DNA from: Minisyncoccota bacterium
GTDB lineage: Bacteria; Patescibacteriota; Minisyncoccia; Phycocordibacterales; SBAW01
Direction of reading: 5' to 3'
DNA length: 64,000 nucleotides
Assembly: GCA_018060985.1 (NCBI GenBank)
Contig: JAGOUZ010000001.1
Location: 85,057 to 149,056 of the forward strand
Shown one piece after another: positions 6,025 through 51,651 of this stretch (its first letter is position 1; the number at the start of each line of letters is the position of its first letter). The notes beneath the pieces were generated by a model. That model had not been told where the DNA came from and searched no databases. It saw only the letters and a list, made by a program, of their open reading frames with translations. The position numbers and the translations under genes were made by a program.

Positions 6025-6036
6025 GGAGTAGCGGTA

Positions 6037-7517: not shown

Positions 7518-7519
7518 CC

Positions 7520-7527: not shown

Positions 7528-7534
7528 TTTGTAC

Positions 7535-7888
7535 ATGGAAGGCCTTTCCAATTTTGAAAGGGATGTTCGTCCGTGGGGCGCGTTTGAGCGTTTTACCTTA
7601 AACGAAAACACAACGGTAAAAATAATTACCGTAAAGGCCGGAGAAGCCTTTAGTCTGCAAACCCATGCACACCGAAAAGAAGTCTGGCGCATTCTCAGTG
7701 GCTCTGGTTCCGTGACCGTAGGCGACACAAAAACCGAAGCGATTGCCGGAAAGAGTTTCTGCATAGAAGCCGGGGTACAACATCGCGCAGAGGCAGGAAC
7801 GGAGGATCTGCAGTTTTTGGAAATAGCCTTTGGAGAGTTTGATGAGGGGGACATTACCAGGCTCGAAGATAAGTATGGGCGAACCTAA
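7535..7888 (+). CDS. Cupin-domain protein, mannose-6-phosphate isomerase type II C-terminal-like
   Basis: PWGAFERF...VKIITVKAGEAFSLQTHAHRKEVWRILSGSGSV...HRAEA...LQFLEIAFGEFDEGDITRLEDKYGR matches the PMI-II/ManC cupin. Start chosen at MEGLSNFERDV, since the longer ORF starting at 7487 would span the terminator hairpin. Confidence 0.7.
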   Translation: MEGLSNFERDVRPWGAFERFTLNENTTVKIITVKAGEAFSLQTHAHRKEVWRILSGSGSVTVGDTKTEAIAGKSFCIEAGVQHRAEAGTEDLQFLEIAFGEFDEGDITRLEDKYGRT

Positions 7889-8999: not shown

Positions 9000-9003
9000 G
9001 AGT

Positions 9004-10929: not shown

Positions 10930-10932
10930 CAT

Positions 10933-14351: not shown

Positions 14352-14411
14352 TCTGCTATTCGTATAATATGTCTCAGTGACCTGTCTCTCCTGACAAGAA
14401 GTATACCGTGT

Positions 14412-14855
14412 CTATCGAGAGAATATGCCAAAGACTGAGTGAAAAAGCTGTGAAAAGAACTCTAGCACATTTTTTGCATGCTCGGCAATTTTAGTAGATG
14501 ACGTAGAAATCTCTTCATCAACTGCTATTTCTGTCTCTGCATGTGCAGTAGAACTGCTGTGTGCGTAAGTCTCGCCACTTACTGCTTCGACAACCGTTTC
14601 TACCTTAATGGGCTCGCCAGGGGCGTAGGTTTTATCAACCACTTCGCTCGTGGTATTGCCATCTACAGTTTTAATGATCTCGGTATGCGAAGTGCCTTCG
14701 TGGTCACCCGCGTGGACAATACTTGTTACCTGCACCGATGCAGAAGAATCCCCCGTTACTATTGTTTGCCCTTCGCCCGCAACCATACCGCCCGTTGCCG
14801 CAGCAGCTGCGCCTGCAGTCATTACTACTCCAGCTACAAATGAATCAATAGACAT
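14412..14855 (-). CDS. Hypothetical small protein with a hydrophobic N-terminal segment, co-transcribed downstream of the 901-aa surface protein
   Basis: Starts 4 nt after the upstream stop. N-terminal segment FVAGVVMTAGAAAAATGG. Acidic, Thr/Ser-rich. Confidence 0.45.
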   Translation of the reverse strand: MSIDSFVAGVVMTAGAAAAATGGMVAGEGQTIVTGDSSASVQVTSIVHAGDHEGTSHTEIIKTVDGNTTSEVVDKTYAPGEPIKVETVVEAVSGETYAHSSSTAHAETEIAVDEEISTSSTKIAEHAKNVLEFFSQLFHSVFGIFSR

Positions 14856-14859
14856 GAGG

Positions 14860-21678: not shown

Positions 21679-22438
21679 CACCTCTTGTTGTAATAATCTC
21701 TTTCCACGGGCCTGCTGGAACTTCAGAGGCACTGACGAAGCGCCACTTGGTTATTTCGTTGGTAGTAAGCCCTAAGCAATCCCACAGCGCTGGAGAAACG
21801 TCGAGACCTGCCCCGACACCGAACGTATTGTGCGGCGCATCACTGCCAAAGACGTATGTGAAATCGTCAGTTAAAAAAGGGCCCACGTCCTGCCACTGGC
21901 CATAGCATGTTTTATTCCCATAACGCACCTCAACCCACCTATTCTTCAGGAGTTCTTGGCTACTCTCAGGAGAGAACCACGGGATAAGGCGTGTGGACGA
22001 TTTGAGGGTAAGTCCGTCGCTCTCTTCCTCGTATTCTCCATACGGCAGCGCTACATAAAAAGGGTTCTCTTTTGGGGTAAACCCGCACGGATAAAAACCC
22101 TTGCGACACTCAGGGTCATCCACTCCGCCAAAGTGTTGCATCCACTGATCGTCCCAGTAACTTTCGTGGTTTGGAATGAATCCGTTCGATTCATCCGACA
22201 CTTCACCCACCCAGAATTGTGTAGTCAGCGTAGTCTTGTATACTGGTGCCAGCTGTAAGGGGTCTGTAGATGAAGAAACATCGTTTCCACCCGGTTCGAT
22301 GTTTTCAATAGATTCGATAGGTGCCATAGGTTCGATAGTGGGTGCCAGGCTTAGGCTGGGACCTATAGCGTACAGACCGCCCAACAACAAAACGACAAAT
22401 ATCAGCAGTGCAGCAATCAGAAACGGATTTTTAGTCAT
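21662..22438 (-). CDS. Hypothetical signal-anchored exported protein
   Basis: N-terminal TM MTKNPFLIAALLIFVVLLLGG. Short tandem peptide repeat IEPMAPIESIENIEP. Cys/Trp-rich C-terminal domain with no family recognised. Confidence 0.5.
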   Translation of the reverse strand: MTKNPFLIAALLIFVVLLLGGLYAIGPSLSLAPTIEPMAPIESIENIEPGGNDVSSSTDPLQLAPVYKTTLTTQFWVGEVSDESNGFIPNHESYWDDQWMQHFGGVDDPECRKGFYPCGFTPKENPFYVALPYGEYEEESDGLTLKSSTRLIPWFSPESSQELLKNRWVEVRYGNKTCYGQWQDVGPFLTDDFTYVFGSDAPHNTFGVGAGLDVSPALWDCLGLTTNEITKWRFVSASEVPAGPWKEIITTRGVSWGQ

Positions 22439-22474
22439 TACTTATTCAGCATAGCAAATCGGCGCCCTAACTCC

Positions 22475-23740
22475 ATGGTTGAACAGCAGGACTCATTTTG
22501 GAAACTATTCTTTACCGCTACGGCAGGTGTGCTTGCCATTGCGGCTTTTGTCATAACCATACTGTTGCTTAAACCATCAGACGAACTCCCCACTCTGCCA
22601 CATGAGAACGCAACTGAGCCCTATGCATACGTAGGTGGGCCAGAGCTTACTGCTACGTCTACTTACTTTTATCGAGAGTCTATCCCTCTTGGCTTTAGCA
22701 ATACTTCGTGGAGCGCGAACGCAAACTGGCGTTCCAAACAGAAGCACTTTGAGGGCACCTACTCTGCGCGTGCAGAATTTACTGGCGAATGGGGTGGCCT
22801 TTCTCTTGCAGGTCGTGGCCTGCCAAGCGCCTCGTACGCAGGCATTTCACTAGCGCTGTTTGCCGAACCTGGGTTACAGGATTTGTATCTTGAACTGTAC
22901 AACGCAGCAGGGGCTACCGTAGGACGCCAATCCATCGGATGGTACTTCCCTTCCGGGAAACTTGAGCCAGGTGCCTGGCAGATGATAGCCATACCGCTCC
23001 GCAACTTTGGCGTAGTGCCAGCAACTATTGGAGGTTTTGCCATAATCTCTCCTCAGAAAGGTGTGGTGTATGTGGATGACGTGCATTTGGCCAAAAACGC
23101 TCCCGCACACGCAGCATGGGCGCCAGCGCCCGAAGTAGCGGGTGCCAGCATAGCTTCACTTACAGAACTATTTGCCCGTACAAAACAAACCGTACTTCCT
23201 TACTGGCTACCGCACGACCCTCAACAGATGCTCGAGTGGCACGCACCGACAGGACAATTTTCTATTTCAGAAAAGGGCATAACGGCTGGCCCACCGGCCA
23301 AAGGAGGAGGTATGCATGCCGCCTACCTTGGCGGACAAATATGGACTGACTACCGAGTAAACGCAGTAACTAACTGGGGCTCTGCCGCCAGCATTTCTTT
23401 GGTCGCGCGCATTCGTGATGAAAACTCACAGGTGTCTTGTTCATTTTCTCAATACGGAGGAGTCATTCAGATATACGCTATGAAAGACGGCATATCTGAA
23501 CTCATAAAAGAAAGTGCCTACGTAGAGGCACTTCCGCCACAGATCCATCCTTGGACTGACATTCCTCTGGGAATTGAAGTTAAGGGTGACCGTGTTAACT
23601 GCTATGCATACGGCCGCCTGAGCCTTACCGCCACACCAAAAAATATGCCCGCAGCAGGATCAGTGGGTATAGAAGTCTGGGATGAACAGCCCAACAAAGA
23701 GCCTCACATCATAAAAACCCTTGGAGTTGAGCCGCGCTAG
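22475..23740 (+). CDS. Membrane-anchored protein with two predicted β-sandwich domains (CBM4/9-like followed by a LamG/DUF1080-like region)
   Basis: TM FFTATAGVLAIAAFVITILLL. ...GGFAIISPQKGVVYVDDVHLAKN (CBM-like C-terminal strand). ...IWTDYRVNAVTNWGSAASISLVARIRDENS (DUF1080-like). Confidence 0.5.
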   Translation: MVEQQDSFWKLFFTATAGVLAIAAFVITILLLKPSDELPTLPHENATEPYAYVGGPELTATSTYFYRESIPLGFSNTSWSANANWRSKQKHFEGTYSARAEFTGEWGGLSLAGRGLPSASYAGISLALFAEPGLQDLYLELYNAAGATVGRQSIGWYFPSGKLEPGAWQMIAIPLRNFGVVPATIGGFAIISPQKGVVYVDDVHLAKNAPAHAAWAPAPEVAGASIASLTELFARTKQTVLPYWLPHDPQQMLEWHAPTGQFSISEKGITAGPPAKGGGMHAAYLGGQIWTDYRVNAVTNWGSAASISLVARIRDENSQVSCSFSQYGGVIQIYAMKDGISELIKESAYVEALPPQIHPWTDIPLGIEVKGDRVNCYAYGRLSLTATPKNMPAAGSVGIEVWDEQPNKEPHIIKTLGVEPR

Positions 23741-24652
23741 TTAGGGCAAACTCTCACAGGCTTCCCCGTCTTTGTTCGAGTCGAGCTTGTGAATGTCGTT
23801 TGAGGAACCCCCACACTGCTCGAACACTGCCTGTGCCTCGGCATGAGTCTCGAAGTCGGTGCAATTGTACTTATTGGTAGAGCACGTGTAGGAAGATGTA
23901 TCAACGGGATCACTCGCCTCCTGTGATTCAGGCGGAGTCTCCTGTTTTTTAACGGGCGTTGGTTTTTCTTCTACCTTCTCTTCTACTTTTGAAACAGGTT
24001 CTTCAGCAGCTTTCTTTGCTTGCACTGGTACGGGAACAGGTTCTTCCACCACAGATTTCTTGGGAGCAGACGATTTTGCACACGCACTTGGTGCCCATAA
24101 ACCTTTTTTACTATCCTGAGCACTTTTTTGTGCAGCTTTATACGCCGCTTGATACTTATACGCCTTGCTGTAGGTGTACTCTTTTGCAAACCCCTCCTCT
24201 ATGAGTTGTTCGCCAGTATGTACCCCCTCTTCGCTAAATACGTAGGCCAAGATACGATCGTATTTATCCCGCTCACCCTGGGATGAATCTTTTTCTAATC
24301 GTACACGAGCGCCTGCTAACTTTTTTAGCGCAGCAGTTGCTTCTGCAGCAAAACATTCGCCATTCGCACCCGTTTCTGGAGTATCAATACCTATCAGCCG
24401 TATAGTCTCGGACTCTCCAGCTATTTTTACCGTAAGCGTGTCACCGTCTATTACTTTTATAACGTCATATAAGTCTGAAGAAACCGCAGCATTCCCCAGA
24501 GCCGCCGTTTGAGTCTGATCTTCAGCGTCGGCGCTTTCGGGGCCCAATGCTGCCAGCCCCTCATCTAGCGCCGGTTTATCAAAATAGATAGCAGCCGCAA
24601 TAACTATTGCAGCAAGGAGACCAAACCCGCCATATATGACATGCTTTGCCAT
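23741..24652 (-). CDS. Secreted thermonuclease (SNase-like) with a C-terminal Excalibur calcium-binding domain
   Basis: N-terminal TM/signal. DVIKVIDGDTLTVKIAGESETIRLIGIDTPET...DKYDRILAYV. C-terminal CTDFETHAEAQAVFEQCGG...LDSNKDGEACE. Confidence 0.8.
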   Translation of the reverse strand: MAKHVIYGGFGLLAAIVIAAAIYFDKPALDEGLAALGPESADAEDQTQTAALGNAAVSSDLYDVIKVIDGDTLTVKIAGESETIRLIGIDTPETGANGECFAAEATAALKKLAGARVRLEKDSSQGERDKYDRILAYVFSEEGVHTGEQLIEEGFAKEYTYSKAYKYQAAYKAAQKSAQDSKKGLWAPSACAKSSAPKKSVVEEPVPVPVQAKKAAEEPVSKVEEKVEEKPTPVKKQETPPESQEASDPVDTSSYTCSTNKYNCTDFETHAEAQAVFEQCGGSSNDIHKLDSNKDGEACESLP

Positions 24653-24700: not shown

Positions 24701-25255
24701 ATGAACAAGCTATCTGTGCTTATCGGTCTCTTTATCGTAATTCTTATCGCCGGTGCTGCGCTCGTGCTCCTGCCGCCAAGCGCTAATGCCCCGACTGGCA
24801 TTACGGAAACGGAGCCTACTAGTTTTGCTGAGTGCGTAGCTGATGGAAACCCCGTTATGGAAAGTTATCCTCGCCAGTGCAATACCCCAAACGGTGGACA
24901 CTTTATTGAAAATATTGGCAATGCACTTGAAAAGCAGGATCTTATTGTTGCAGCAACGCCGCGCCCAGGAGACTCTGCTGTTTCCCCTCTCACTATTTCT
25001 GGCGAGGCACGCGGCTACTGGTTCTTCGAAGCGAGCTTCCCCTACGAACTCCAAGATGCACAAGGCAACATGATCGCTCAGGGTCCAGTGCAAGCAACCG
25101 GCGATTGGATGACGGAAGAGTTTGTGCCCTTTACTATCGACATTACCTTCCCTCCTCAACCTGTAGGTTCAGAGGGCACTTTACTACTTAAAAAAGACAA
25201 TCCATCAGGATTACCGGAAAACGAGGATGCACTCGTGATCCCAGTAGTATTTTAG
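24701..25255 (+). CDS. Secreted protein with a Gmad2-type immunoglobulin-like domain
   Basis: Signal MNKLSVLIGLFIVILIAGAALVLL. LTISGEARGYWFFEASFPYELQDAQGNMIAQGPVQATGDWMTEEFVPFTIDITF resembles the Gmad2/GerMN Ig-like fold. Confidence 0.5.
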   Translation: MNKLSVLIGLFIVILIAGAALVLLPPSANAPTGITETEPTSFAECVADGNPVMESYPRQCNTPNGGHFIENIGNALEKQDLIVAATPRPGDSAVSPLTISGEARGYWFFEASFPYELQDAQGNMIAQGPVQATGDWMTEEFVPFTIDITFPPQPVGSEGTLLLKKDNPSGLPENEDALVIPVVF

Positions 25256-25266
25256 AGAAAAAGAGA

Positions 25267-25299
25267 AACCCCGCGCATGTGCGCGGGGTTCGTTTTCGT
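25267..25299. terminator. Perfect GC hairpin with flanking T/A runs; bidirectional terminator at the left edge of the GC-rich island
   Basis: aaccccgcgcatgtgcgcggggtt, then tcgttttcgt. The upstream side reads tttagagaaaaagagaa. Confidence 0.55.
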
Positions 25300-25348
25300 G
25301 AAGAACAGTTTCGTCCTGCCTAAGCAGGAACTGGACGGATGGACCGCC

Positions 25349-25621
25349 CTAGACCGACCCTCGGCAGCTCTTGCTCGAGGAATCTTCCAGGCACGCGCAG
25401 ACGTTGCCGACGTGTGGCTGGATGCTGACCGGCACCGAGGCGAATGTCGTCGGCTCGGGCGCCTTGCAGTAGGCGGCGATCGGGTCGGCCACCTTGGCCA
25501 CGACGGTGTCGCCGACGATGGCGACGAGACCGAGAGCCGCAAGGCACAGCGCGGTGGGTAACGGGTAGAGGGCACCGATGTGCCCCAATCCAGAGACCCG
25601 ACCGGGGGGTGATACTGACAT
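25349..25621 (-). CDS. Small hypothetical (possibly membrane) protein, last gene of the GC-rich island operon
   Basis: Starts 5 nt after the CE4 stop. Third-position GC is about 85%, consistent with a real reading frame in high-GC DNA. Hydrophobic stretch LCLAALGLVAIVGDTVVAKV. Confidence 0.4.
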   Translation of the reverse strand: MSVSPPGRVSGLGHIGALYPLPTALCLAALGLVAIVGDTVVAKVADPIAAYCKAPEPTTFASVPVSIQPHVGNVCACLEDSSSKSCRGSV

Positions 25622-25625
25622 GGTA

Positions 25626-26357
25626 CTAGGTACCTCCTGTGTTCTGATGAAGTTCCTTCAGTGCGTCGCCGACCGTGAGGACGGCGAACCCTTTGACATG
25701 TACGAGCTCGACGAGATCCGCAAGCAGGTCCGTGCCCCAAGGCTCAGTGACCACCTGCCCTTTCGGGTAAATGTGGTGCAGTTGGAATACTACCCAACCA
25801 CCGCGAACTTGCAAGTCTTCAAGAAGCGTGTCGAGCTCCTCGAGCGTCGTCTCCTTGTTCAGGTAATAGGAGGCGATCGTGTAGGGATCGGGCTTGGTGG
25901 TGTTCATCCCAATAGGCCATGCGGCCCGGTGGGACTGGTAGTGGCGCTTGAGGATCGCAAGAACGCGATCATCGTAGGCGCCAAAAGGCGAAGCGAAGTG
26001 CACAGGGCTGTACCCATGCTTGTTGAACTCCTCCGCCGACATTCGCAGCTCTTCCTCGATGCCAGCGTCTGTGAGTTTGGTGAGCCTCGCATGGGTATGC
26101 GTATGCGCACCGATCTCGCAATGGTATTTCTGGACGGCGTCGGCGACGGCGTCCCAATCCATGTAGTCAGGCCGCGTCGTATTTCTCGTCGAGATATACA
26201 CCGTGGCTGGATACTCGTATTTGTCGAGGAGCGGAAGCCCCACGGTAAGGACCGAGTCCGGCGCATCGTCGAACGTGAAGCTGACGATGGCCTGCTCCGC
26301 ACTCGCCACACAGGGCGTGAGAGCGAGTGCGACAAGTGCAAACAAAATCCGAATCAT
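25626..26357 (-). CDS. Secreted polysaccharide deacetylase (CE4/NodB family)
   Basis: Signal MIRILFALVALALTPCVASA. SFTFDDAPDS...TVYIST...GAHTHTHARL. Confidence 0.8.
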   Translation of the reverse strand: MIRILFALVALALTPCVASAEQAIVSFTFDDAPDSVLTVGLPLLDKYEYPATVYISTRNTTRPDYMDWDAVADAVQKYHCEIGAHTHTHARLTKLTDAGIEEELRMSAEEFNKHGYSPVHFASPFGAYDDRVLAILKRHYQSHRAAWPIGMNTTKPDPYTIASYYLNKETTLEELDTLLEDLQVRGGWVVFQLHHIYPKGQVVTEPWGTDLLADLVELVHVKGFAVLTVGDALKELHQNTGGT

Positions 26358-26373
26358 GACCTGGTTTCCTTTC

Positions 26374-27543
26374 TCAGGCGGTCTTTTCGACGTACCGTTT
26401 TGGTGACTCCCACTTTACCGTTCCCTTCCGGATAATCGCCCGCCAAAACCCCTTGAGGAAGTAAAGGACGTCGACATACCAGATAAAAGGATATGTGGGA
26501 GAGTACAGGATGATGTCCCAGCGTCTTTCGAGCCAGGCAAAGAGTATCGTCGTCGGAAGCGATATTGCGTAGCTCCCGACGGTTAGTGCGCCAAATGCTA
26601 GTAACCCCGAGTACCAAGGGGTACCGAGAGTGACGTAGTAGTCGAGCGTCTTCTGGCTGATCAGATGAAACTGATGGCCAAACACGTTCAGGTCAGCAAG
26701 CCATGACAGCCTGTGAGCAATGAACGGCAGCATGAGAGCCATGATGGGCATCGCGAAGCGCCAAAAGGCCGTCAGGATACCCTCGGTCCAGAGCAGTTTG
26801 CACTCCCAGTCCACACGCTTGGTACCCCAGTAGATCTTGCGTTTGTCGATCACCTGCCACGTGCCGGTGTACCAACGCAACATCTGCTTCATATAGTCGT
26901 TTAGAGTTCGGGGTGTCTGAGTATAGACTTTGGCGTCGACCACATAGGCGATCTTGCCAAGTCTTTCGTGATGGATCTGGATAGTCACATCCATATCCTC
27001 CGATACCGTTCCGCCTTTCCAGTCGAGCTGCTTGAAGACGGAGGTGCGGTACATGCTCGAACACCCGGGAGCAATGCAGACCATACCGAGTTTTCCCTGC
27101 GCCTTCCGGTATATATAGTGTCCGTTGGCGTAGCAGAGCGCCCGATAGGCGGTAAGCCAGTTGTATCTGATCGAGATCGGCCGCCCGCATGCGGCAACCA
27201 CCCACGGATCATCAAAGCTCTTGAGCATCCATGTGAAGTAGTCGACGTCGACGAGGGTGTCGGCATCCATAAGCGCAACGTAGTCGTATTGATTTGTCAG
27301 ATTGAACACCTCAAACGCACGTTCGATGCCGAGGGCCTTGCCGATGTTCGGGTCGTTGCGAAGCACGTTGACACCGAACTCGCGTCCGATGTCCCCAGTA
27401 TTGTCTGTCGAACCGTCATCCACCAGGTAGATATCTTCAGCGCGCGCTCCGGCGGCTATGAGCCCCCGGAGAGTGTTTGGCAGCATCATCTCCTCGTTGT
27501 GAGCAGGGACGATGACGCAGAACTTTTTTCTTGGTTCCCACAT
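26374..27543 (-). CDS. Processive family-2 glycosyltransferase (PgaC/IcaA/chitin-synthase-like) with C-terminal TM helices
   Basis: FCVIVPAHNEE...VDDGSTDNT...MDAD...QMLRWYTG (QxxRW). Four to five C-terminal TM segments. Confidence 0.8.
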   Translation of the reverse strand: MWEPRKKFCVIVPAHNEEMMLPNTLRGLIAAGARAEDIYLVDDGSTDNTGDIGREFGVNVLRNDPNIGKALGIERAFEVFNLTNQYDYVALMDADTLVDVDYFTWMLKSFDDPWVVAACGRPISIRYNWLTAYRALCYANGHYIYRKAQGKLGMVCIAPGCSSMYRTSVFKQLDWKGGTVSEDMDVTIQIHHERLGKIAYVVDAKVYTQTPRTLNDYMKQMLRWYTGTWQVIDKRKIYWGTKRVDWECKLLWTEGILTAFWRFAMPIMALMLPFIAHRLSWLADLNVFGHQFHLISQKTLDYYVTLGTPWYSGLLAFGALTVGSYAISLPTTILFAWLERRWDIILYSPTYPFIWYVDVLYFLKGFWRAIIRKGTVKWESPKRYVEKTA

Positions 27544-27553
27544 ACCCTATTCC

Positions 27554-28159
27554 TTAAGACAGCGCCGATACCCGCAGCTCTTGCTTGAGCGTATAGCGGG
27601 CAGCAGGAAGATTTCTTTCGATAGTGATACGAGGACCAAAGATACTTCCTGGAGCGACGATGCGTCCGGGAAGAATAATGACCTGGATGCCGAGAGACGC
27701 CTTTGCGCCGATATAGGCACCCAACTTGTCGAGCCCGGTGTCACGAAGCGAACCTCTATACATCGCCGAGACCGGGTTACGGTCTAGGCGCTGATTGCTG
27801 GTACGCACCATGGCGCCGAGATAGGCCTCGCTGTCCACGACAGAATCCGCGACGTAGCACATGGGACCAATGAGGACCCTGGTGCCGATCACAGCGTTCT
27901 TGAGTTCGGTTGCAAGACCGATGCGCGAGCCCGCCGCAATTCTGAGCGGGCCGCGCAGCATAGTGTTGTTGCCGATCATGCAGTTTGCACCGATCCACAC
28001 CGGACCTTTGATGGTGGCGCCGGGGCAGATCATTGTATTCGCTCCAATCCGCACATCACCCTCTACGATTGCCGAGCGGGCGATCTTAGCAGAAGGGCTA
28101 ACATACGGATCGAAGTGAGAGCAGAATTGTGCCATTACTCCGAGTTTTTTCCACCACAC
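27554..28159 (-). CDS. Left-handed β-helix (hexapeptide-repeat) acyl/acetyltransferase
   Basis: Repeated [LIV]-G-x-x-x-x-I hexads (IGANTMI, IGANCMIGNNTML, IAAGSRIG, IGTRVLIG). Confidence 0.75.
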   Translation of the reverse strand: MWWKKLGVMAQFCSHFDPYVSPSAKIARSAIVEGDVRIGANTMICPGATIKGPVWIGANCMIGNNTMLRGPLRIAAGSRIGLATELKNAVIGTRVLIGPMCYVADSVVDSEAYLGAMVRTSNQRLDRNPVSAMYRGSLRDTGLDKLGAYIGAKASLGIQVIILPGRIVAPGSIFGPRITIERNLPAARYTLKQELRVSALS

Positions 28160-28179
28160 AGTCTCATTCCTTCCTTGTT

Positions 28180-28800
28180 CTAGAGGACTAGTTTGTACGC
28201 GATGAATGCTTCCGCCGGACCGATGCCGACGAGCTGCCCACGAAAGTGGGCTAAGTCACGCATCACGTTGGGCTGTGTGTAAGGGCGGTCGCACTGACTT
28301 GTATGTAGCGCGAGCGCCGCTATCTTCTTGTCGAGCACCCGTTCGTCGAAGCCCTCGAACACCTGCGGAGTGAAGTTGGTCCAACTCGACGGTGTCTCGT
28401 AGCAAATGATCTGACCTGCTGGGCGACACGCCACAACAGACGCCTCAAAGGCCGTGCGATGATCCTGATGCTTGTCTCTCTCGAACATTGTGTATACCCT
28501 GTCGGGTTTTATGGCGTTGGAATGACCTTCGATGAAGGTAATTATTTCGGTGAGATGGTTGTACATCTTGGTGTCTGGAAAGTCCTCTGTGTGGACGTCC
28601 GTGACACCAAGCAAGGCAAGCGCCTCGGTCGTCTCCTGAAGACGATCGGTATTATGACGATTGCCGACCGCGCCATTACTAAGAACGAGCGCACGGACGT
28701 GCGTCCCGCACTCAGCGAACTTTGCAATACTGCCGCCACATCCCAGCTCGATATCGTCTGGGTGGGCGCCGATCGCGAGAATTGTCTGCAATTTCCTCAT
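28180..28800 (-). CDS. PIG-L/LmbE-family N-acetylglucosaminyl deacetylase
   Basis: ILAIGAHPDDIELGCGGSIAKF...HQDHR. Start taken at MRKLQT, which has an upstream AAGGTG RBS; the ORF extends 20 codons further. Confidence 0.8.
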   Translation of the reverse strand: MRKLQTILAIGAHPDDIELGCGGSIAKFAECGTHVRALVLSNGAVGNRHNTDRLQETTEALALLGVTDVHTEDFPDTKMYNHLTEIITFIEGHSNAIKPDRVYTMFERDKHQDHRTAFEASVVACRPAGQIICYETPSSWTNFTPQVFEGFDERVLDKKIAALALHTSQCDRPYTQPNVMRDLAHFRGQLVGIGPAEAFIAYKLVL

Positions 28801-28980
28801 TTCACACCTTCTATTTCGATTCATGTCAAGGGTCGGTCCCTGGAGCGCAGCATACCACATAATTTTACATTTTTCAATGTTTATGCGGCTATAAAAATCT
28901 TTGACACATTAAACAACGCGTGTTAGATTGTGCGCGGCGTTCTATGTAAGAAAGCCGACCCAAAACCGGAGACCTTGAGA

Positions 28981-29823
28981 ATGAAAAAGATGATCGGACT
29001 GTTCGTGGCTGCCGCATTGCTGGCAGTTACGCCCTTCTCTGCCTTTGCGGCCGACGATACCCTTCCCATCCCCAAGCTCCGCATCGACGCCAAGAAGAGG
29101 ATGCCCATGATCAGCATCTCCTTCGACGTCGCCGACAAGGACAACGCGCTCGGCGCATCGCTCGCCCTGCTCAAGAAGTACGATCTTCCGGCAACATTCT
29201 TCCTCACCACCGGCGGAGTCGGCTATGATGGCGGGCTCTCCTGGCAGGAAGTCCAGAACTACATCTCGCTCGGATACGAGGTCGCATCGCGCGGCCACAC
29301 CGGCGCAGACATGATCAAGACCAACATGAGCGCCGACGCCATTTCGGCCTCGATCGCGACGTCTACCTGGAACATCGCTCGCGAGACGGGAGCTATCGCA
29401 ACCGTCTTTTCGACAGCCTGGAACGCCGGCAACGACGTGTCGTCCAGTGCGGCACGGGCACTCCATCTCGCCGTCGTGTCCACCAGCGACTACGGCGCCA
29501 TCGTGGGAGCCGGGCAGAACGACCTCGCGGGGATCGGCGACGGGGCCATCAGCCGCGTCATGCTGACCAATGCGACGGACTACGGCGAGATCTGCGACAA
29601 GGTCGCGTTTGCGGCGTCCGACCATCGGTGGCTGAACATCGGCATCATGCAGGTCGTGAAGGACCCGAAGGCGTCAGCCCCCGAGTGGTACGACATCTCG
29701 ACGGCGAACCTCGACCTGGTCTTCGAATGCATCTCCATCTATGCCAATGCCGGCCTGATCAAGCCGGTCACCATCAGCGAGGGCCTCAAGGCCATCGCGC
29801 CGGCCAAGGTTGCGGCCAAGTAA
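28981..29823 (+). CDS. Secreted NodB-homology-like protein with degenerate catalytic motifs
   Basis: Signal MKKMIGLFVAAALLAVTPFSAFA, preceded by a GGAGA RBS. ISISFDVADKDNALG...LPATFFLTTGG...SRGHTGADM replaces the TFDDG / HxxxH motifs. Confidence 0.5.
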   Translation: MKKMIGLFVAAALLAVTPFSAFAADDTLPIPKLRIDAKKRMPMISISFDVADKDNALGASLALLKKYDLPATFFLTTGGVGYDGGLSWQEVQNYISLGYEVASRGHTGADMIKTNMSADAISASIATSTWNIARETGAIATVFSTAWNAGNDVSSSAARALHLAVVSTSDYGAIVGAGQNDLAGIGDGAISRVMLTNATDYGEICDKVAFAASDHRWLNIGIMQVVKDPKASAPEWYDISTANLDLVFECISIYANAGLIKPVTISEGLKAIAPAKVAAK

Positions 29824-29952
29824 CAACCACCTGTGCGAAATTGAGCGGGACCTACGGGTCCCGCTTTTTCTATATTAATTAGTATAGAGAGTATTGACAT
29901 TTTTGCTTTTTTGATGTAAACCAATTTCAGATTCCCGGTTTTGGAGGCGAAT

Positions 29953-30558
29953 GTGAACGCACATCGAGTGATCTGCCCAGCTCTCGCCTTGTGCCTTATG
30001 GCCTTAGCGGGATTCACCGAAAAACTGACAGACTCTAACCCCTGCCCTAATGGCTGGGACAACATGGGTGGCTTCAATATTACGGGCTATTACGCCCCAA
30101 CTGAAGAAGAGTTCGACGGTAAGAGCAAGAAAGTCAAAGTAAATGGGGTATGGCGTACCATAAACGCCGACTTTCTGGACGCCGTCAGCGACCACGACGG
30201 CAATGGCGAAGGGTGGGGCCGAACTCAAAAAGGCGATTTCATCGGTTACTACGACAACCATTGGAGCTCTTCTCCCCACCCTCTCGACGAGCAAGGGAAC
30301 GAGCTCCGCATCGGCACTGTCGCCGTCGATCCCGCAATGATCGAACCTGGCTCGCAGGTGATGATCCTTACGCTCCCCGAGACTGAGTTCTTTGATCCGG
30401 ACACGGTTTTTAGTGCCACTGACACGGGCACTCAGATTCGAGACAAACATATCGATATTTACACCGGTGTGGGACCCGAAGCCAGAGAAGCCATGTTCAC
30501 CATCACTTCCCTGGAAAACGCTGCCGAGGTCTGCATATTGGGCCCGTCAGATCAATAA
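29953..30558 (+). CDS. 3D-domain protein (MltA/YuiC-like cell-wall associated)
   Basis: GTG start after a GGAGG RBS; signal VNAHRVICPALALCLMALAGF. C-terminal TDTGTQIRDKHIDIYTG, typical of the 3D domain. Confidence 0.6.
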   Translation: MNAHRVICPALALCLMALAGFTEKLTDSNPCPNGWDNMGGFNITGYYAPTEEEFDGKSKKVKVNGVWRTINADFLDAVSDHDGNGEGWGRTQKGDFIGYYDNHWSSSPHPLDEQGNELRIGTVAVDPAMIEPGSQVMILTLPETEFFDPDTVFSATDTGTQIRDKHIDIYTGVGPEAREAMFTITSLENAAEVCILGPSDQ

Positions 30559-30568
30559 AAGAAGCCTC

Positions 30569-30600
30569 GCGCGACCGCCCTGCGGTCGCGCTTTCTATTT
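30569..30600 (+). terminator. GC hairpin plus T-run at the right edge of the GC-rich island
   Basis: gcgcgaccgccctgcggtcgcgc followed by tttctattt. Confidence 0.55.
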
Positions 30601-30809
30601 CCACCAAATGAGCCGAAATTTCGATACACAACTTCAAAAAATGCCGTTGCTTTTTTGAGAAAAAGTTCTCCACTTTCTTATACACACGCAACTTGCGTAA
30701 ATGCACATGTAACCATCAGACAGACCTCGGTATACTTGATAGTCCAAGTGTCAGGTATACCAAAAGGGGCGTCTAAAAGATTATTAGCTACTTAATAAGA
30801 AAGAGCGGC

Positions 30810-33800
30810 ATGTCCACCACCCAAAAAATTAAAAAAAGAAACGGAGAAATAGTCGACTTTAAACCTGAAAAGATTAATGTCGCAATAAAAAAAGCGTTTG
30901 CCGCAACGCTGGGTGATGCTCATGAATCGGAGGCAGATGCAATAACAAAACTTATTGTAGACACCATTGATGCAAAATTCGGCAACACAGCACTCCTTCC
31001 AACAGTGGAAGCAATTCAGGATCTGGTAGAAAACGCGTTGATGGACCGCACCTTCTTTACGGTTGCAAAAGCCTACATCATTTACCGCTACGAACACGAG
31101 AAAATCCGCCGAGAAGAAAAAGAGAAAATTGTTGAAAAAATTATCGATAATGAGCTTTATATAACCAAAAGAAATGGCTCAAGAGAGCGCTTTTCTGAAA
31201 GTAAGCTCACCCGCACCCTCCTGCGCGCCGCAGAAGGCTATGACCGCGTTATAGACGTACCTTCTATCATCTCCAAAGTGCGCCAGGAAATGTACGACGG
31301 CATTAAAACGCGGGAGATCCACGAAGTGTTGGTGATGGTGGTGCGCTCATTTATTGAACGCGACCCGGCACACTCTACCGTTGCCGCGCGTCTTTTGATG
31401 CAGTCTATATATCATGAAGTAATGGGCGAGGTTGATTATGAAAGACTCGAAGAAGTGCACCGCAATGGTTTTATCGACGCCATAAAGCGCGGTGTGTCTA
31501 TCGGCCAGTTCGACCCACGCATGCTCGACTTTGATTTGCCCAAGCTTGCTGAAGCACTCCAGGTTGAGCGCGACCTTGAGTTTAAGTACCTTGGCCTCCA
31601 GACCCTCCAGACCAACTACCTATCTAAAGAGCACGGCACGCGGAAGATCCTCGAAACACCGCAGATGTTCTGGATGCGTATCGCTATGGGCTGCGCCTTG
31701 GCAGAAAAGACCGTTGAGGAGCGCGAGCGCCACGCCATAGAGTTCTACGAGATTATGTCGGCTATGTACTATACGCCGTCTTCACCAACCCTCTATCACT
31801 CGGGCCTTATGAAGCCCCAGCTCTCATCCTGCTTCCTTGCCACCGTTCCAGACGACCTCCACCAGATCTTTGCTGAGTACTCAGACGGTGCCCAGCTCCT
31901 TAAATATGCTGGCGGCCTTGGTACCGACTGGACCCCAGTTCGTGCGACCGGCTCATTGGTTAAGACAACTGGTGTAGAGAGCCAGGGCGTAATTCCATTC
32001 CTTAAGATTGCTAACGACGTCACTATCTCGATTAACCGCTCCGGCCGCCGTCGCGGCGCCGCAGCCGTGTACCTCGAGTATTGGCACCTAGATATTGAGG
32101 ACTTTATGGAGCTCCGTAAGAACACCGGTGACGAGCGGCGCCGTGCCCACGATCTCAACACCGCCACCTGGATCCCCGACCTCTTTATGAAGCGCCTCCG
32201 CGAAGACGGTTACTGGACGCTCTTTAGCCCATCAGATGTTCCTGACCTGCACGAAATCTACGGCCGCAAGTTTGAGGAAGCCTATACCAAGTACGAACAA
32301 ATGGCAGAAGCTGGGCAAATCCCCCACCACAAAAAGATTCGCGCCGCAGAAATCTGGCGCAAGCACCTCACCATGCTCTTCGAAACTGGCCATCCTTGGA
32401 TTACCTGGAAGGACCCTTCTAACATCCGCTCCCCTCAGGACCATGTAGGAGTTGTGCACTCATCGAACCTCTGCACCGAAATTACACTTAACTCTTCTGC
32501 TACCGAGACCGCCGTCTGTAACCTTGGGTCAATTAACATGGCTAAGTTTGTGGTTAACGGCAAGTTTGACCGCGACCTCGTTGCCCGCGTAGTCCCTGTA
32601 GCTATGCGCATGCTCGACAACGTCATTGACGTTAACTACTATCCGACCGAAAAGACCAAGCGCTCTAATGCCCGCCACCGCCCAGTAGGCCTTGGCCTCC
32701 GCGGCTTGCAGGATGCACTGTATAAGCTGAATATCAACTTCGATACCGAAGAGGCTGTGCGCTTTAGCGACGAGTCCATGGAGGCAATCTCCTACCACGC
32801 CATCCTTTCTTCTGCCCTTTTGGCAAAAGAGCGCGGAGCCTACGAGACCTACAAAGGCTCTAAATGGGACCGCGGTATCTTGCCACAAGACACGCTTAAC
32901 CTGCTTGAACACGAGCGCGGTATGCGCATCGATGTGCCTCGCCACGAGACTCTAGACTGGCGCCTGGTGCGTGAAGCCGTTCGCCAGTGGGGTATGCGCA
33001 ATAGCAATACCATGGCTAACGCTCCCACTGCAACGACTGCCAACATTGCTGGCTGCTACCCAACTATCGAGCCTATCTACAAGAACCTCTACGTTAAGAG
33101 CAATATGGCCGGCGACTTTATGGTCGTTAACGACTACTTGGTTGAAGACCTCAAGAGCCTCGGCCTCTGGAACGAAGACATGCTCGAAAAGATTAAATAC
33201 CACGACGGCAGCATCCAAGAAATCCTCGAGATCCCGCAGGCAATGCGCGACAAGTACAAAGAAGTGTTTGAGATCGAACCGCAGTGGCTTATTAAAGCAG
33301 CTGCCTACCGCGGCCGCTGGATAGACCAAAGCCAGTCGCTCAACATCTTCTACAGCGGACAGAGCGGCAAAGTGCTTTCAGAAATCTATCAGTACGCTTG
33401 GAGTCTTGGCCTTAAAACCACCTACTACCTGCGCACCATGGGCGCCAGCCGTATTGAAAAATCGACGGTTAACCTCGCCAAATTCGGCGGCACCAGCAAA
33501 GGCGACACCTCAGTAGCCTCCTCACCACAAGGCTCAGTTCCATCAACAGTGATTATTGAAGAAACAATAACCGTAGCCTCTATCAACCAAAGCCCTCTTT
33601 TAACCGCCGTAATTAACGAACGCGCCATGTATACCGAGCCCACACCCTCAACTCCCTCTATGGGCTTCATGGCGCCCTCTGCAGCCTCAACACCTGCCCC
33701 AGCACCTCAGGCAACACCGGTAGTTACCGCATCGGTCGGAATCCCAAGCTTTAGCGAAAGCACGGTCGTAAAGAACTTCGTTGGCCCAACTGGCAAGCGG

Positions 33801-33845
33801 GTGGAGGTAGTAAATAGCCAAGAGTGCGAGAGTTGCTCGGCATAG
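30810..33845 (+). CDS. nrdA: Ribonucleoside-diphosphate reductase alpha subunit (class I), with a ~150-aa low-complexity C-terminal extension ending in a Cys pair
   Basis: ATP-cone KKRNGEIVDFKPEKINVAIKKAF. Catalytic NLCTEI. C-terminal ...QECESCSA. Confidence 0.9.
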   Translation: MSTTQKIKKRNGEIVDFKPEKINVAIKKAFAATLGDAHESEADAITKLIVDTIDAKFGNTALLPTVEAIQDLVENALMDRTFFTVAKAYIIYRYEHEKIRREEKEKIVEKIIDNELYITKRNGSRERFSESKLTRTLLRAAEGYDRVIDVPSIISKVRQEMYDGIKTREIHEVLVMVVRSFIERDPAHSTVAARLLMQSIYHEVMGEVDYERLEEVHRNGFIDAIKRGVSIGQFDPRMLDFDLPKLAEALQVERDLEFKYLGLQTLQTNYLSKEHGTRKILETPQMFWMRIAMGCALAEKTVEERERHAIEFYEIMSAMYYTPSSPTLYHSGLMKPQLSSCFLATVPDDLHQIFAEYSDGAQLLKYAGGLGTDWTPVRATGSLVKTTGVESQGVIPFLKIANDVTISINRSGRRRGAAAVYLEYWHLDIEDFMELRKNTGDERRRAHDLNTATWIPDLFMKRLREDGYWTLFSPSDVPDLHEIYGRKFEEAYTKYEQMAEAGQIPHHKKIRAAEIWRKHLTMLFETGHPWITWKDPSNIRSPQDHVGVVHSSNLCTEITLNSSATETAVCNLGSINMAKFVVNGKFDRDLVARVVPVAMRMLDNVIDVNYYPTEKTKRSNARHRPVGLGLRGLQDALYKLNINFDTEEAVRFSDESMEAISYHAILSSALLAKERGAYETYKGSKWDRGILPQDTLNLLEHERGMRIDVPRHETLDWRLVREAVRQWGMRNSNTMANAPTATTANIAGCYPTIEPIYKNLYVKSNMAGDFMVVNDYLVEDLKSLGLWNEDMLEKIKYHDGSIQEILEIPQAMRDKYKEVFEIEPQWLIKAAAYRGRWIDQSQSLNIFYSGQSGKVLSEIYQYAWSLGLKTTYYLRTMGASRIEKSTVNLAKFGGTSKGDTSVASSPQGSVPSTVIIEETITVASINQSPLLTAVINERAMYTEPTPSTPSMGFMAPSAASTPAPAPQATPVVTASVGIPSFSESTVVKNFVGPTGKRVEVVNSQECESCSA

Positions 33846-33898
33846 ACTGCACTCTGTCAATCTTGTTCAACATTAAAAGCTAGTTAGAATACTCCTGT

Positions 33899-34894
33899 AT
33901 GGCAGGGATCATAAATGGTGCGTCCAGTACCGACCCGAACAAGATACTTCCGATGAAGTACCCGTGGGCACGTACTCACTATAAAAAAGGTGTGGCAAAC
34001 AACTGGGTACCGGAAGAGGTTTCGATGCAGCAAGACGTTGAGCTTTGGAAGAAACCCGGTGCACTCAGCGAAGACGAGCGCCGCATGATCCTCTGGAACC
34101 TCGGCTTCTTTTCTACTGCCGAGTCTCTTACCGGCAACAACTTGGTGCTCGCAATCTATCGTCACATCTCTAACCCAGAAGCGCGTCAGTACCTACTCCG
34201 CCAAGCGTACGAAGAAGCCGTACACACCGACACCTTCATTTACTGCTGCGACACGCTCGGCCTCAACCCCGACGAGATCTACAACATGTACCTCACCATC
34301 CCATCTATCAAAGACAAGGATGACTTTGTGGTGGAGATAACCAAGAGCGTATTTGATCCGGGCTTTACGACTGAAGGCACCGAAAACATGCAGAAGTTCG
34401 TGCATGACCTCGTGGGCTTCTACGTAATCATGGAGGGTATCTTCTTTTACGCAGGATTTGTGATGATGCTCTCGATGCTCCGCAAAAACCGTATGGTAGG
34501 CATTGGCGAACAATTCCAGTTTATCCTCCGCGACGAGTCGGTACACTTGGCCTTTGGCGCTGACCTTATTAACACCATTGTGCAAGAGAATCCGCAGATC
34601 TGGACCACAGAATATAAAGAAACGCTTACAAAAAACATTATGCGTGGCGTTGAGCTTGAAAAGAAGTATGCCGATGACGCACTCCCGCGCGGTATTGTTG
34701 GCCTCAGCCCAACCACGATTAAGCAATATATAGAGCACATTGCCGACCGTCGCCTAGAGCGCATTGGCCTCCAGCGCCAGTATCACAAAGACAACCCCTT
34801 CCCTTGGATGTCAGAGATTATTGACATGCCGAAAGAGAAGAACTTCTTCGAAACCCGCGTTACGGAGTACAAAACCGGAGAACTAGACTGGTAG
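33899..34894 (+). CDS. nrdB: Ribonucleotide reductase beta (R2) subunit
   Basis: Ferritin-like di-iron motifs (EAVHTDTF..., ESVHLAFG). Located 54 nt after nrdA. Confidence 0.9.
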   Translation: MAGIINGASSTDPNKILPMKYPWARTHYKKGVANNWVPEEVSMQQDVELWKKPGALSEDERRMILWNLGFFSTAESLTGNNLVLAIYRHISNPEARQYLLRQAYEEAVHTDTFIYCCDTLGLNPDEIYNMYLTIPSIKDKDDFVVEITKSVFDPGFTTEGTENMQKFVHDLVGFYVIMEGIFFYAGFVMMLSMLRKNRMVGIGEQFQFILRDESVHLAFGADLINTIVQENPQIWTTEYKETLTKNIMRGVELEKKYADDALPRGIVGLSPTTIKQYIEHIADRRLERIGLQRQYHKDNPFPWMSEIIDMPKEKNFFETRVTEYKTGELDW

Positions 34895-38878: not shown

Positions 38879-39592
38879 ATGAAAAGCCAATACGTGTTGC
38901 CTATTACTATAGTAGTTGCGGGTCTTTTAATAGCGGGTGCAGTATTTTTGCTCGGTGGTGATGGAGGCGGTGCTACGACCGACTCTCAAAATATCAAAGG
39001 CCGCGCATTTGACCCATCCAAAGACTACATCGTGGGCAACCCTGACGCTCCTATCAAAGTGGTTGAGTACGCAGACCTCGAGTGCCCATTCTGCAAAACT
39101 TTCCACAACACCATGCACCAGGTTATGCAGTACTACGGCCCTGGCGGTCAGGTGGCGTGGGTATTCCGCCCATTTCCTCTAGCACAGCTTCACTCTAAAG
39201 CACCGCGCGAAGCGCAGGCTGCAGAATGTGCCGGTGAACAGGGCGGTAGCGAAGCATTCTTTAAATTTATCGATCGTCTCTACGAAGTTACCCCGTCATC
39301 AAACGGTCTCGATCTTAACCAACTCCCCGTTATTGCTGGCGAAGTTGGCCTTGATACCAATGCGTTTAACTCCTGCCTTGCAAGCGAAAAATATGCCAAG
39401 AAAGTCAGCGAATCATACGCAGAAGCTATTAAACTAGGTGCGCAGGGTACGCCATACACACTCATCATGGTTGGCGACGAAGCAGTAACCCTCCCAGGCA
39501 ATCAGCCGTATGACTCAATGCGCGCTGCTATCGACGCAGTACTCGTAGGCGTAAATGCTCCAGCAGCAACTGAAGAGACTCCGGCTCAGTAA
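38879..39592 (+). CDS. DsbA-family thiol:disulfide oxidoreductase, membrane-anchored
   Basis: N-terminal TM. VEYADLECPFCKTFH thioredoxin CPxC active site. Confidence 0.8.
   Translation: MKSQYVLPITIVVAGLLIAGAVFLLGGDGGGATTDSQNIKGRAFDPSKDYIVGNPDAPIKVVEYADLECPFCKTFHNTMHQVMQYYGPGGQVAWVFRPFPLAQLHSKAPREAQAAECAGEQGGSEAFFKFIDRLYEVTPSSNGLDLNQLPVIAGEVGLDTNAFNSCLASEKYAKKVSESYAEAIKLGAQGTPYTLIMVGDEAVTLPGNQPYDSMRAAIDAVLVGVNAPAATEETPAQ

Positions 39593-44793: not shown

Positions 44794-51651
<6,858 letters not shown>

Follow-up and report, generated by a model that had tools for sequence, protein, structure and literature searches.

The 64,000-nucleotide window analysed here (contig JAGOUZ010000001.1 of a Minisyncoccota bacterium, assembly GCA_018060985.1, positions 85,057 to 149,056) carries at 25285-30600 an island of seven genes. 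They encode a membrane glycosyltransferase of family 2 (GT2), a secreted deacetylase of carbohydrate esterase family 4 (CE4a), a second, degenerate CE4 protein (CE4b), a PIG-L protein, a left-handed beta-helix (LbH) protein, a membrane protein of 90 amino acids (aa) and a 3D-domain protein. We propose that the island is a glycan-synthesis locus taken up laterally by the common ancestor of the host and of its nearest relative, the metagenome-assembled genome (MAG) L003, from a GC-richer member of the same bacterial class, and inserted between a Gmad2 domain gene and the nrdA region. We give this reading a probability of about 0.6. The most likely product is an exported glycan based on N-acetylglucosamine (GlcNAc), which would lose acetyl groups outside the cell and perhaps be N-re-acylated inside it. 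The locus is a variant of the synthase-dependent amino-sugar glycan systems; it is neither a poly-N-acetylglucosamine (PNAG) operon nor of actinobacterial origin, the two proposals of an initial annotation that had been made from the sequence alone.

Composition, boundaries and acquisition of the island

The block at about 25.26-30.6 kb is real and moderately atypical in composition. Its GC content was 56.2%, against 50.9% in the remaining window, and 1-kb windows across it ranged from 0.52 to 0.60. The initial annotation had reported a rise above 60% over a background of about 50%; the shift stands, but the rise is smaller than claimed, and the GC content at third codon positions (GC3) also falls short of the 85% that had been given. 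In the seven open reading frames (ORFs) of the island it ranged from 0.62 to 0.83, with a mean of about 0.70, and exceeded 0.8 only in CE4b and in the 90-aa ORF; the CE4b value (0.83) was the highest in the whole window. The 44 ORFs outside the island had a GC3 of 0.527 ± 0.052, with a maximum of 0.642 in nrdB (Mann-Whitney p = 7e-5 versus the island). Tetranucleotide distance, computed in 5-kb windows over the 64 kb, was highest at 25001-30000 (z = 2.97); GC, GC3 and tetranucleotide frequencies all set the island apart.

The junctions of the island were identical in two assemblies of the same genome (a 34-kb Logan contig and the 155-kb NCBI contig) and were also present in the independent MAG L003, indicating that the island is not an assembly chimera. 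Among the classical marks of genomic islands, an atypical composition and presence or absence among relatives were found, while an integrase, a tRNA target and direct repeats were not. Pfam searches detected no integrase or recombinase among the seven ORFs, a tRNA scan of the window found none, and an Rfam scan of the window gave no match. The sole repeat flanking the island is an imperfect 14-nt pair (13/14 nt, at 25250 and 30652), which was considered as an att site and rejected, being absent in L003; the initial statement that neither integrase nor direct repeats are visible is thus borne out. The GC-rich hairpin terminators reported for both edges were also recovered, together with a third one inside the island (Table 1).

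Retrieval based on nrdA placed the host among Adlerbacteria-like Patescibacteria/Paceibacteria; roughly 55 genomes of this Adlerbacteria-like type entered the analysis. In about 30 relatives, inspected over 10 kb on either side of nrdA, Gmad2 lies directly upstream of nrdA-nrdB...truB, usually separated from nrdA by a gene for a membrane protein of about 170-190 aa. The flanks of these relatives, which in many of them reach 8-10 kb upstream, contained no island gene. The window and L003 are alone in having the island, in collinear arrangement, between Gmad2 and nrdA. The flanks of these two genomes are 91% (nrdA), 95% (nrdB) and 91% (truB) identical, whereas identity within the island drops to 84-86% for GT2 and LbH, 61-65% for CE4a, PIG-L and the 90-aa protein, and 45-47% for CE4b and the 3D protein. 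An island that is shared with the nearest relative but is far more diverged than its flanks points to an acquisition that was not recent. The lateral acquisition postulated in the initial annotation is therefore retained, but not its recency: the closest homologues of all seven genes are found in L003, with the same neighbours and at 45-85% identity.

Two details of the right junction were noted. L003 keeps a gene for a 192-aa membrane protein to the right of the island (7137-7835), such as is found in about 25 relatives, and the window has lost it (30592-30809). About 100 bases 5' of nrdA (~30690-30790) are nearly identical in L003 and may be a conserved nrdA leader or regulatory site; they gave no Rfam match.

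The ordered operon PIG-L, LbH, GT2, CE4 and small protein (hereafter the cassette) recurs in Patescibacteria-like contigs (L083-86, L087-89, L094-95, L099, L100, L110 and L178). It is located between a VTT-domain gene and clpB in L083-85 and near secDF in L086. In L087/L099, L100, L110 and L178, it lies between type IV pilus genes and Gmad2-nrdA, that is, on the other side of Gmad2. A neighbor-joining (NJ) tree of nrdA nested the window and L003 among genomes without a cassette near nrdA and grouped the four lineages with the order cassette, Gmad2, nrdA in a separate clade. The GT2 of the window cassette is 66-67% identical to those of L083 and L086, versus 54-62% for the nrdA-linked clade. 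The PIG-L gene is 65% identical to its L003 counterpart (4620-5237) and 62-68% identical to those of the other cassettes, so that it does not pair with L003; these identities suggest a mosaic history, with recombination inside the operon. Type IV pilus genes (T2SSE ATPase, T2SSF platform, N_methyl pilins, LVIVD protein) follow the cassette in L087-89, L094-95, L099, L100, L178 (3' of the small gene), L090 and L119. In the window, none lies next to the island.

Elsewhere, the GC content of the cassette follows that of its host (44% in L083, 53-59% in L087). Codon usage of the island correlated strongly with that of family members of 57-64% GC (r 0.85-0.88) and less with that of the host's own genes (0.49). 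As the GC content within the host's family spans 44-64%, a related donor suffices to explain the composition. No actinobacterial homologue appeared in either of two large protein searches; the named homologues come from Pacebacteria, Kaiserbacteria, Terriglobales/Acidobacteria and Stenotrophomonas, and more distant PIG-L and LbH relatives from Gammaproteobacteria. The donor was thus most likely another Patescibacterium, somewhat GC-richer and of the same bacterial class. The actinobacterial-like donor of the initial annotation is not retained, given this absence of matches and the operon of the same order in Patescibacteria contigs.

Genes and predicted enzymes of the locus

The island comprises three transcription units: a five-gene operon on the minus strand (PIG-L, LbH, GT2, CE4a and the 90-aa ORF, separated by gaps of 4-20 nt), CE4b, and the 3D gene, the latter two on the plus strand. 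The operon ends at a bidirectional terminator, and CE4b and the 3D gene each have their own. The seven ORFs and their domains (CE4, GT2, hexapeptide LbH, PIG-L, weak CE4 and 3D) hold up in Pfam and NCBIfam, in agreement with the initial description of a coherent glycan-synthesis unit, from which the 3D gene has to be set apart. Its product is 47% identical in L003 and has no match at the nrdA or cassette loci of the other genomes; the 3D gene is an island member only in this genome and L003, and no recurrent member of the unit. Hydrophobic segments are absent from PIG-L and LbH, form an N-terminal signal-like stretch in CE4a, CE4b and the 3D protein, and amount to one transmembrane (TM) helix in the 90-aa protein.

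Table 1. Features of the island and of its immediate flanks, in window coordinates.
Feature	Coordinates	Strand	Remarks
Gmad2 domain protein, left flanking host gene	24701..25255	+	Pfam Gmad2 6.9e-14; left island boundary
Bidirectional GC-rich hairpin terminator	25267..25290	both	10-11 bp stem, 8 GC pairs, T-runs on both strands; serves Gmad2 (+) and the five-gene operon (-)
90-aa single-pass membrane protein, last operon gene	25349..25621	-	Four invariant Cys in tail; N-terminal G-R-x-S...H motif
CE4a, secreted intact CE4 (NodB-fold) deacetylase (predicted)	25626..26357	-	Pfam Polysacc_deac_1 4.9e-22; signal peptide
Membrane GT2 synthase, processive type (predicted)	26374..27543	-	Pfam GT2 families and Chitin_synth_2
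YaiX-type LbH protein, cytoplasmic	27554..28159	-	Hexapep 5.7e-20; stand-alone, 201 aa
YaiS-type PIG-L/LmbE zinc deacetylase, cytoplasmic, first operon gene	28180..28800	-	Pfam PIG-L PF02585 3.2e-23, 83 bits vs cut-off 28
AT-rich divergent promoter region, operon/CE4b	28849..28929	both	27.5% GC over 28861-28929; promoter-like sites 28877-28849 (-) and 28901-28929 (+), each with extended -10 TG
CE4b, secreted NodB-fold pseudo-deacetylase (probable)	28981..29823	+	Weak Polysacc_deac_1 8.6e-10
Terminator after CE4b	29843..29866	+	10-bp stem, 7 GC pairs, then T-run
3D-domain (MltA-like) secreted protein	29953..30558	+	Pfam 3D 9.2e-10; hydrophobic N-terminus
Terminator, right island edge	30569..30591	+	10-bp stem, 9 GC pairs, then T-run
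nrdA (class I ribonucleotide reductase large subunit), right flanking host gene	30810..33845	+	Pfam families of the identical gene; synteny and phylogeny anchor

Processive membrane GT2 synthases (the superfamily of BcsA, HAS, chitin synthase, PgaC and NodC) are marked by the motifs D, DxD, (T/S)ED and Q(Q/R)xRW. The island GT2 contains D, DxD, ED and QxxRW, and the corresponding residues (D43/D47, D93-A-D95, E182-D183 and Q220-M-L-R223-W224) were invariant in 50 homologues. Since sequence searches against the PDB gave only weak GT-A matches, a structure model was needed. The top Foldseek matches of the AlphaFold2 model (predicted local distance difference test score of 90.9) in the PDB were hyaluronan, chitin and cellulose synthases (Cv-HAS, XlHAS1, Chs1 and BcsA), with E values of 1e-15 to 1e-12 and TM-scores of 0.55-0.68. 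On these motifs and this predicted fold the protein is predicted to be a synthase of the processive type, as the initial annotation had deduced from QxxRW. It has no N-terminal TM helices; its C-terminal part is predicted to contain interface and TM helices, although only one segment of the protein passes a simple hydropathy cut-off. The best NCBIfam match was PgaC_IcaA (TIGR03937), at 95.1 bits and thus below the cut-off of 422.3, in an alignment that begins at model position 46; NodC (TIGR04242) was likewise below threshold (52.3 bits versus 550).

Identity with the GT2 part of the host's own fused CE4-PG_binding-GT2 protein (803 aa) is only about 26%; this fused type is also represented by Streptomyces MatB. 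Outside the cassette, the nearest GT2 relatives (40-45% identity) lie beside a CE4 gene in Kaiserbacteria and Acidobacteria. These uncharacterised GT2 and CE4 pairs differ from the island in that they have no PIG-L, LbH or 90-aa protein, and are accompanied by other conserved partners of 250-275 aa.

The motifs TFD-DAP, GAHTHTH and QLHH are retained in CE4a and in every orthologue; as motifs 1, 2 and 5 of active CE4 enzymes (canonically TFDD, H(S/T)xxH and LxH) they correspond to the Asp-His-His metal site and to the catalytic Asp and His, while motif 3 lacks its usual Arg. With this intact catalytic set, and with its signal peptide, CE4a is predicted to be the active, secreted deacetylase initially described. 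Its best NCBIfam match was HfsH (2.4e-16 over the full length, 60 bits versus a cut-off of 400), and its best PDB match the chitin deacetylase ArCE4A; scores against PgaB (24 bits, cut-off 322), IcaB (24, cut-off 248) and NodB TIGR04243 (25.6, cut-off 240) were lower. CE4b, in contrast, has FDV in place of FDD in motif 1, the second Asp being missing. Comparison of the copies from the window, L003 and L095 showed that the motif 5 His is also missing and that the motif 2 His is absent in L003 and L095. The protein, which had been called degenerate from the outset, is a pseudo-deacetylase by these substitutions, and probably glycan-binding. A divergent CE4 gene homologous to CE4b is found upstream of PIG-L in L095, L094 and L110; a word-index search with CE4b retrieved only CE4b itself.

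The 90-aa ORF, noted initially as a tiny ORF of high GC3, is a real, conserved gene. Orthologues were found directly after the CE4 gene in L003, L083, L086, L087 and L094, and an AGGAGG Shine-Dalgarno sequence lies 11 nt upstream of its ATG. The alignment shows 13 invariant residues in addition to the initiator Met (G7, R8, S10, H14, P20, C26, G31, Y51, C52, P55, C75, C77 and C86). The hydrophobic segment (15-45) is preceded by the G-R-x-S...H motif and followed by a tail with four Cys. The protein has no Pfam or NCBIfam match and no detectable similarity to PgaD or IcaD. Only four relatives were retrieved in a search of 1.8 billion representative proteins, which is consistent with a gene that is usually left uncalled. 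In the public gene calls for this genome, a 94-aa ORF of the opposite strand (25277-25561, +) replaces it, and the L083 orthologue is uncalled. More speculatively, the protein is a candidate partner of the synthase, which could supply a membrane helix to a GT2 devoid of N-terminal helices. Some 8 kb downstream, at 38879-39592, a DsbA-like thioredoxin is encoded; the four Cys of the tail would go well with a disulfide system outside the cytoplasm.

The PIG-L protein contains AHPDD and HQDH, which fit the HxDD and H residues that form the metal and general-base motif of the LmbE family (PMC4101496). Its best PDB matches were TT1542, BshB and diacetylchitobiose deacetylase; the score against the BshB1 equivalog (74 bits) was below the threshold of 182. 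It is 52% identical to a Stenotrophomonas PIG-L protein and 44% to E. coli YaiS. The LbH protein matched Arch_glmU (8.6e-35, 120 bits versus a cut-off of 292) over the C-terminal half of the model only (positions 218-392) and ST0452 (2.6e-18), with LpxD also among the PDB and NCBIfam matches. It is related to glucosamine-1-phosphate acetyltransferases, resembling the acetyltransferase half of GlmU and ST0452, and lacks their N-terminal nucleotidyltransferase domain. At the position of the catalytic His of these enzymes, which we take to be His363 in E. coli GlmU and His308 in ST0452, it has Pro99, although the equivalents of Tyr311, Asn331 and Arg333 are kept. Among 30 family members, including those of E. 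coli and Stenotrophomonas, G98 is invariant and P99 at least 90% conserved. Of the initial assignment as an LbH acyltransferase, the LbH domain holds, whereas the activity is plausible but uncertain, given the conserved Pro where GlmU and ST0452 have their catalytic His.

The PIG-L and LbH genes connect the island with operons of cultured bacteria. E. coli YaiX and the Stenotrophomonas LbH each share 55% identity with the LbH protein of the island (53-56% among cultured Stenotrophomonas homologues). In Stenotrophomonas the operon reads PIG-L, GT2, LbH and YaiO, an outer-membrane barrel, and the E. coli K-12 genes yaiS-yaiP-yaiX-yaiO (b0364, b0363, b4579 and b0358) are the same operon. In a survey of 80 metagenome loci this layout was found in nearly all, and that of the candidate phyla radiation (CPR) in five; wherever the contig lets it be seen, LbH has PIG-L and a membrane GT2 as its neighbours in both layouts. 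Like yaiSPXO, the island has adjacent genes for PIG-L and an LbH protein of about 200 aa in one operon with a GT2 of predicted multi-pass membrane type, and the LbH proteins of both share an MWWK N-terminus and IGPxC[FY] in place of the catalytic His. The two differ in the GT2, which is only 26-31% identical to YaiP and the Stenotrophomonas GT2 and belongs to another lineage, YaiP having an N-terminal TM helix. They also differ in gene order, PIG-L being followed by GT2 and LbH in yaiSPXO and by LbH and GT2 in the island, and in the end of the operon. The diderm version ends with the YaiO barrel, whose place in the CPR version is taken by a secreted CE4 and a Cys-rich mini-protein, often accompanied by a dead CE4; neither the window nor any other CPR cassette contains a YaiO homologue.

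L119 and L090 contain a Kaiserbacteria-type GT2 and CE4 core, which is preceded by PIG-L and LbH in L119 and stands without them in L090. The CPR cassette thus looks like a recombination of two modules, the YaiS/YaiX pair and the GT2/CE4 pair.

A literature search found no functional study of yaiS-yaiP-yaiX-yaiO. The yaiX segment is present in 4909 of 5426 complete E. coli genomes. In K-12 (L179, 376000-388000) yaiX is split by IS2A, and E. coli O111:H21 strain 15A (L180) has an intact yaiX but a PIG-L gene with the annotation of a partial pseudogene; some lineages of E. coli may therefore be losing the operon. Xanthomonas xagABCD was considered as a counterpart of the Stenotrophomonas operon, but the published accounts do not say which domains the proteins contain; a KEGG-based table assigns no COG to XagA, and XagB is likened to a monoglucosyl-diacylglycerol synthase. 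We do not claim the identity, which was not demonstrated.

Product and competing explanations

Three unrelated enzyme families of the locus point to GlcNAc or glucosamine (GlcN) chemistry, which is the main argument for the nature of the sugar. Judging from its fold, motifs and partner enzymes, the GT2 would polymerise a GlcNAc-containing chain from UDP-GlcNAc and pass it across the membrane. CE4a, with its intact motifs and signal peptide, would remove part of the N-acetyl groups outside the cell, in the manner of IcaB, PgaB and HfsH. On the cytoplasmic side PIG-L may de-N-acetylate a GlcNAc-bearing intermediate, by analogy with the LmbE-family pathways, LpxC/LpxD and NodB/NodA, and by the same analogy LbH may then re-acylate the freed amine or otherwise handle the intermediate. 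It is a matter of speculation whether the 90-aa protein adds its helix to the synthase, CE4b binds or retains the polymer, and the glycan serves attachment, as the pilus neighbours in relatives might indicate. Our literature search found no described locus of PIG-L, LbH, GT2 and CE4 in CPR bacteria.

Several observations weigh against an acquired locus for a modified GlcNAc polymer. The cassette could sit elsewhere in the genomes of the relatives, beyond the 10 kb inspected on either side of nrdA, and the nrdA tree is an NJ tree without support values. The second clade of the family with a cassette beside Gmad2-nrdA, on Gmad2's other side, could reflect an old residence with rearrangement and losses. 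As for the product, the sequence of the GT2 does not reveal which sugar it uses and its scores are under both the PgaC and the NodC equivalog thresholds, while the LbH protein, lacking the catalytic His of GlmU and ST0452, may not be an acyltransferase.

A broader reading, which we regard as tentative, takes the island as the monoderm or CPR form of an unrecognised, phylum-spanning module that combines a membrane GT2 synthase, a YaiS-type PIG-L deacetylase and a YaiX-type LbH devoid of the canonical catalytic His. Such a module would make a GlcN-containing glycan or glycolipid from which the N-acetyl group is removed inside the cell and then replaced or processed, following a logic like that of NodCBA or LpxCD with enzymes of other folds. 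It would be found in Stenotrophomonas too and, in the form of yaiSPXO, in about 90% of the complete genomes of E. coli, and in CPR bacteria it would have been recombined with a different GT2 and CE4 pair and with the Cys-rich mini-subunit. Its frequent position next to type IV pilus genes would fit a part in attachment to host cells.

The main functional rival is a short acylated oligosaccharide or glycolipid, of Nod-factor or LpxC/LpxD logic. The GT2 would make a GlcNAc oligomer or a GlcNAc-lipid, PIG-L would free one amine and LbH would add another acyl group, as in the synthesis of Nod factor (NodC-NodB-NodA), glycosylphosphatidylinositol (GPI), mycothiol or lipid A. We think this doubtful but worth considering. 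Every characterised LmbE-family deacetylase acts on a GlcNAc-containing small molecule (PMC4101496). NodC is among the GT2 matches as LpxD is among those of LbH, and the PIG-L, LbH and GT2 trio is conserved across phyla although the lineage of the GT2 differs. In the GPI, mycothiol and bacillithiol pathways an LmbE-family deacetylase acts directly after GlcNAc transfer. However, the GT2 has the full motif set of processive synthases and its nearest folds are those of polymer synthases, and a secreted CE4 of active type together with a secreted CE4-like binder would better fit an extracellular polymer. Furthermore, the LbH protein lacks the usual catalytic His, the scores stay under the NodC and NodB thresholds, and NCBIfam detects no NodA.

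The Nod-factor system, with its LbH O-acetyltransferase NodL, does divide the work in a like manner between a GlcNAc-polymerising GT2, a deacetylase that exposes a single amine, and an acyltransferase, but the cytoplasmic deacetylase of the island has the PIG-L fold and not that of CE4, and CE4a is secreted whereas NodB is cytoplasmic. A similar partial likeness exists with the Caulobacter holdfast, a GlcNAc-based adhesin tuned by deacetylation (HfsH) and acyl transfer (HfsK). HfsH is cytoplasmic and HfsK is not known to be an LbH protein; the holdfast is made by a Wzy-type pathway, and CE4a scores far below the HfsH cut-off.

The acquisition itself has an alternative, which we consider unlikely: the cassette would be an old vertical resident of the Gmad2-nrdA neighbourhood, moved across Gmad2 and lost in most lineages, with a GC3 excess due to gene-specific codon selection. 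This would account for the cassettes, sometimes with CE4b, that stand immediately upstream of Gmad2-nrdA and in the same orientation in L087/L099, L100, L110 and L178, and for an identity between the window and L087 cassettes (54-66%) close to that of hisS and truB (65-69%). On the other hand, those four lineages form their own nrdA clade, with the window and L003 placed among genomes lacking the cassette, the window cassette is closer to those of L083 and L086, in unrelated contexts, than to the nrdA-linked ones, and the PIG-L identities are mosaic. As regards codon selection, the GC3 of nrdA and nrdB is raised here and in relatives. Their values exceed those of neighbouring genes in the window (30810-34894) and in many relatives (including L005, L017, L033, L038 and L045; 0.91 versus 0.46-0.67 in L038), which suggests an expression-linked codon bias in the host's family. 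The codon shift of the island is nevertheless uncorrelated with that of nrdAB, genes of putatively high expression (r = 0.05); rare codons, both G-ending ones and those for Arg, take part in it. Expression-driven codon bias was therefore rejected as the cause of the high GC3.

We find it improbable that the island is a peptidoglycan-editing module, in which CE4a would deacetylate GlcNAc or MurNAc, the 3D protein would be a lytic transglycosylase, and GT2, PIG-L and LbH would decorate a wall-linked glycan. CE4a does give weak matches to models and structures of the PgdA, PdaB and PdaC type, the 3D domain resembles MltA, and neighbouring host genes are envelope-related. CE4a is, however, always in an operon with a synthase-type GT2 and has HfsH as its best full-length match, all its PgdA and Pda scores are far under the cut-offs, and the 3D gene is no recurrent partner.

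There remains the original proposal, a second, split pgaC/pgaB system beside the host's fused protein and recently received from a high-GC, actinobacterial-like donor. With pgaABCD and icaADBC the island shares a membrane GT2 with the D, DxD, ED and QxxRW motifs, an extracytoplasmic CE4 de-N-acetylase and a small membrane protein in the operon, which parallels IcaD and PgaD in position only. It differs from them by lacking about 45 N-terminal positions of the PgaC_IcaA model, which include the TM region, as well as the PgaA porin and IcaC, and by having additional PIG-L and LbH genes. GC and GC3 are indeed raised, the GT2 has PgaC_IcaA as its best NCBIfam match, and several sources name its homologues PNAG synthases. 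We nevertheless hold this proposal to be very improbable, because the GT2 reaches only 95 bits of 422 and CE4a 24 of 322 for PgaB, NCBIfam detects no PgaD or IcaD homologue, none of the named homologues is actinobacterial, the whole operon recurs in CPR contigs and is shared with L003 at 45-85% identity, and the codon usage is matched by relatives of 57-64% GC.

Genomic surroundings and implications

The left half of the window (2825-11715 and 19267-24652) is envelope- or glycan-related throughout. It encodes BacA, a GT4, a GT2, a VTT protein, two GH130 phosphorylases, a PMM-like hydrolase, a secreted SNase, the fused CE4-PG_binding-GT2 protein (803 aa, 19267-21678) and several secreted proteins without a family. 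Between these segments, 11730-17565 forms a second compositional outlier of the window (tetranucleotide z of about 2) with two large ORFs on the minus strand, one of 873 aa with a CE4 domain and a weak CBM_4_9 match under the Pfam cut-off, and one of 901 aa without any Pfam match. A still larger ORF, of 2285 aa, lies on the minus strand at 44794-51651.

Patescibacteria are thought to live attached to other cells, and to our knowledge almost nothing is known about their surface glycans. The locus described here represents a mobile surface-glycan cassette that is exchanged within the Patescibacteria and repeatedly found near type IV pilus genes in relatives of the host. GC-rich islands in CPR genomes need not derive from distant high-GC phyla, as the GC content spans 44-64% within this one family. 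For annotation, it corrects public records in which the conserved 90-aa gene was missed or called on the wrong strand. Finally, the YaiS/YaiX-type pair links the locus to an uncharacterised operon of most E. coli and of Stenotrophomonas, so that its chemistry can be tested in culturable bacteria and the results transferred to the CPR.

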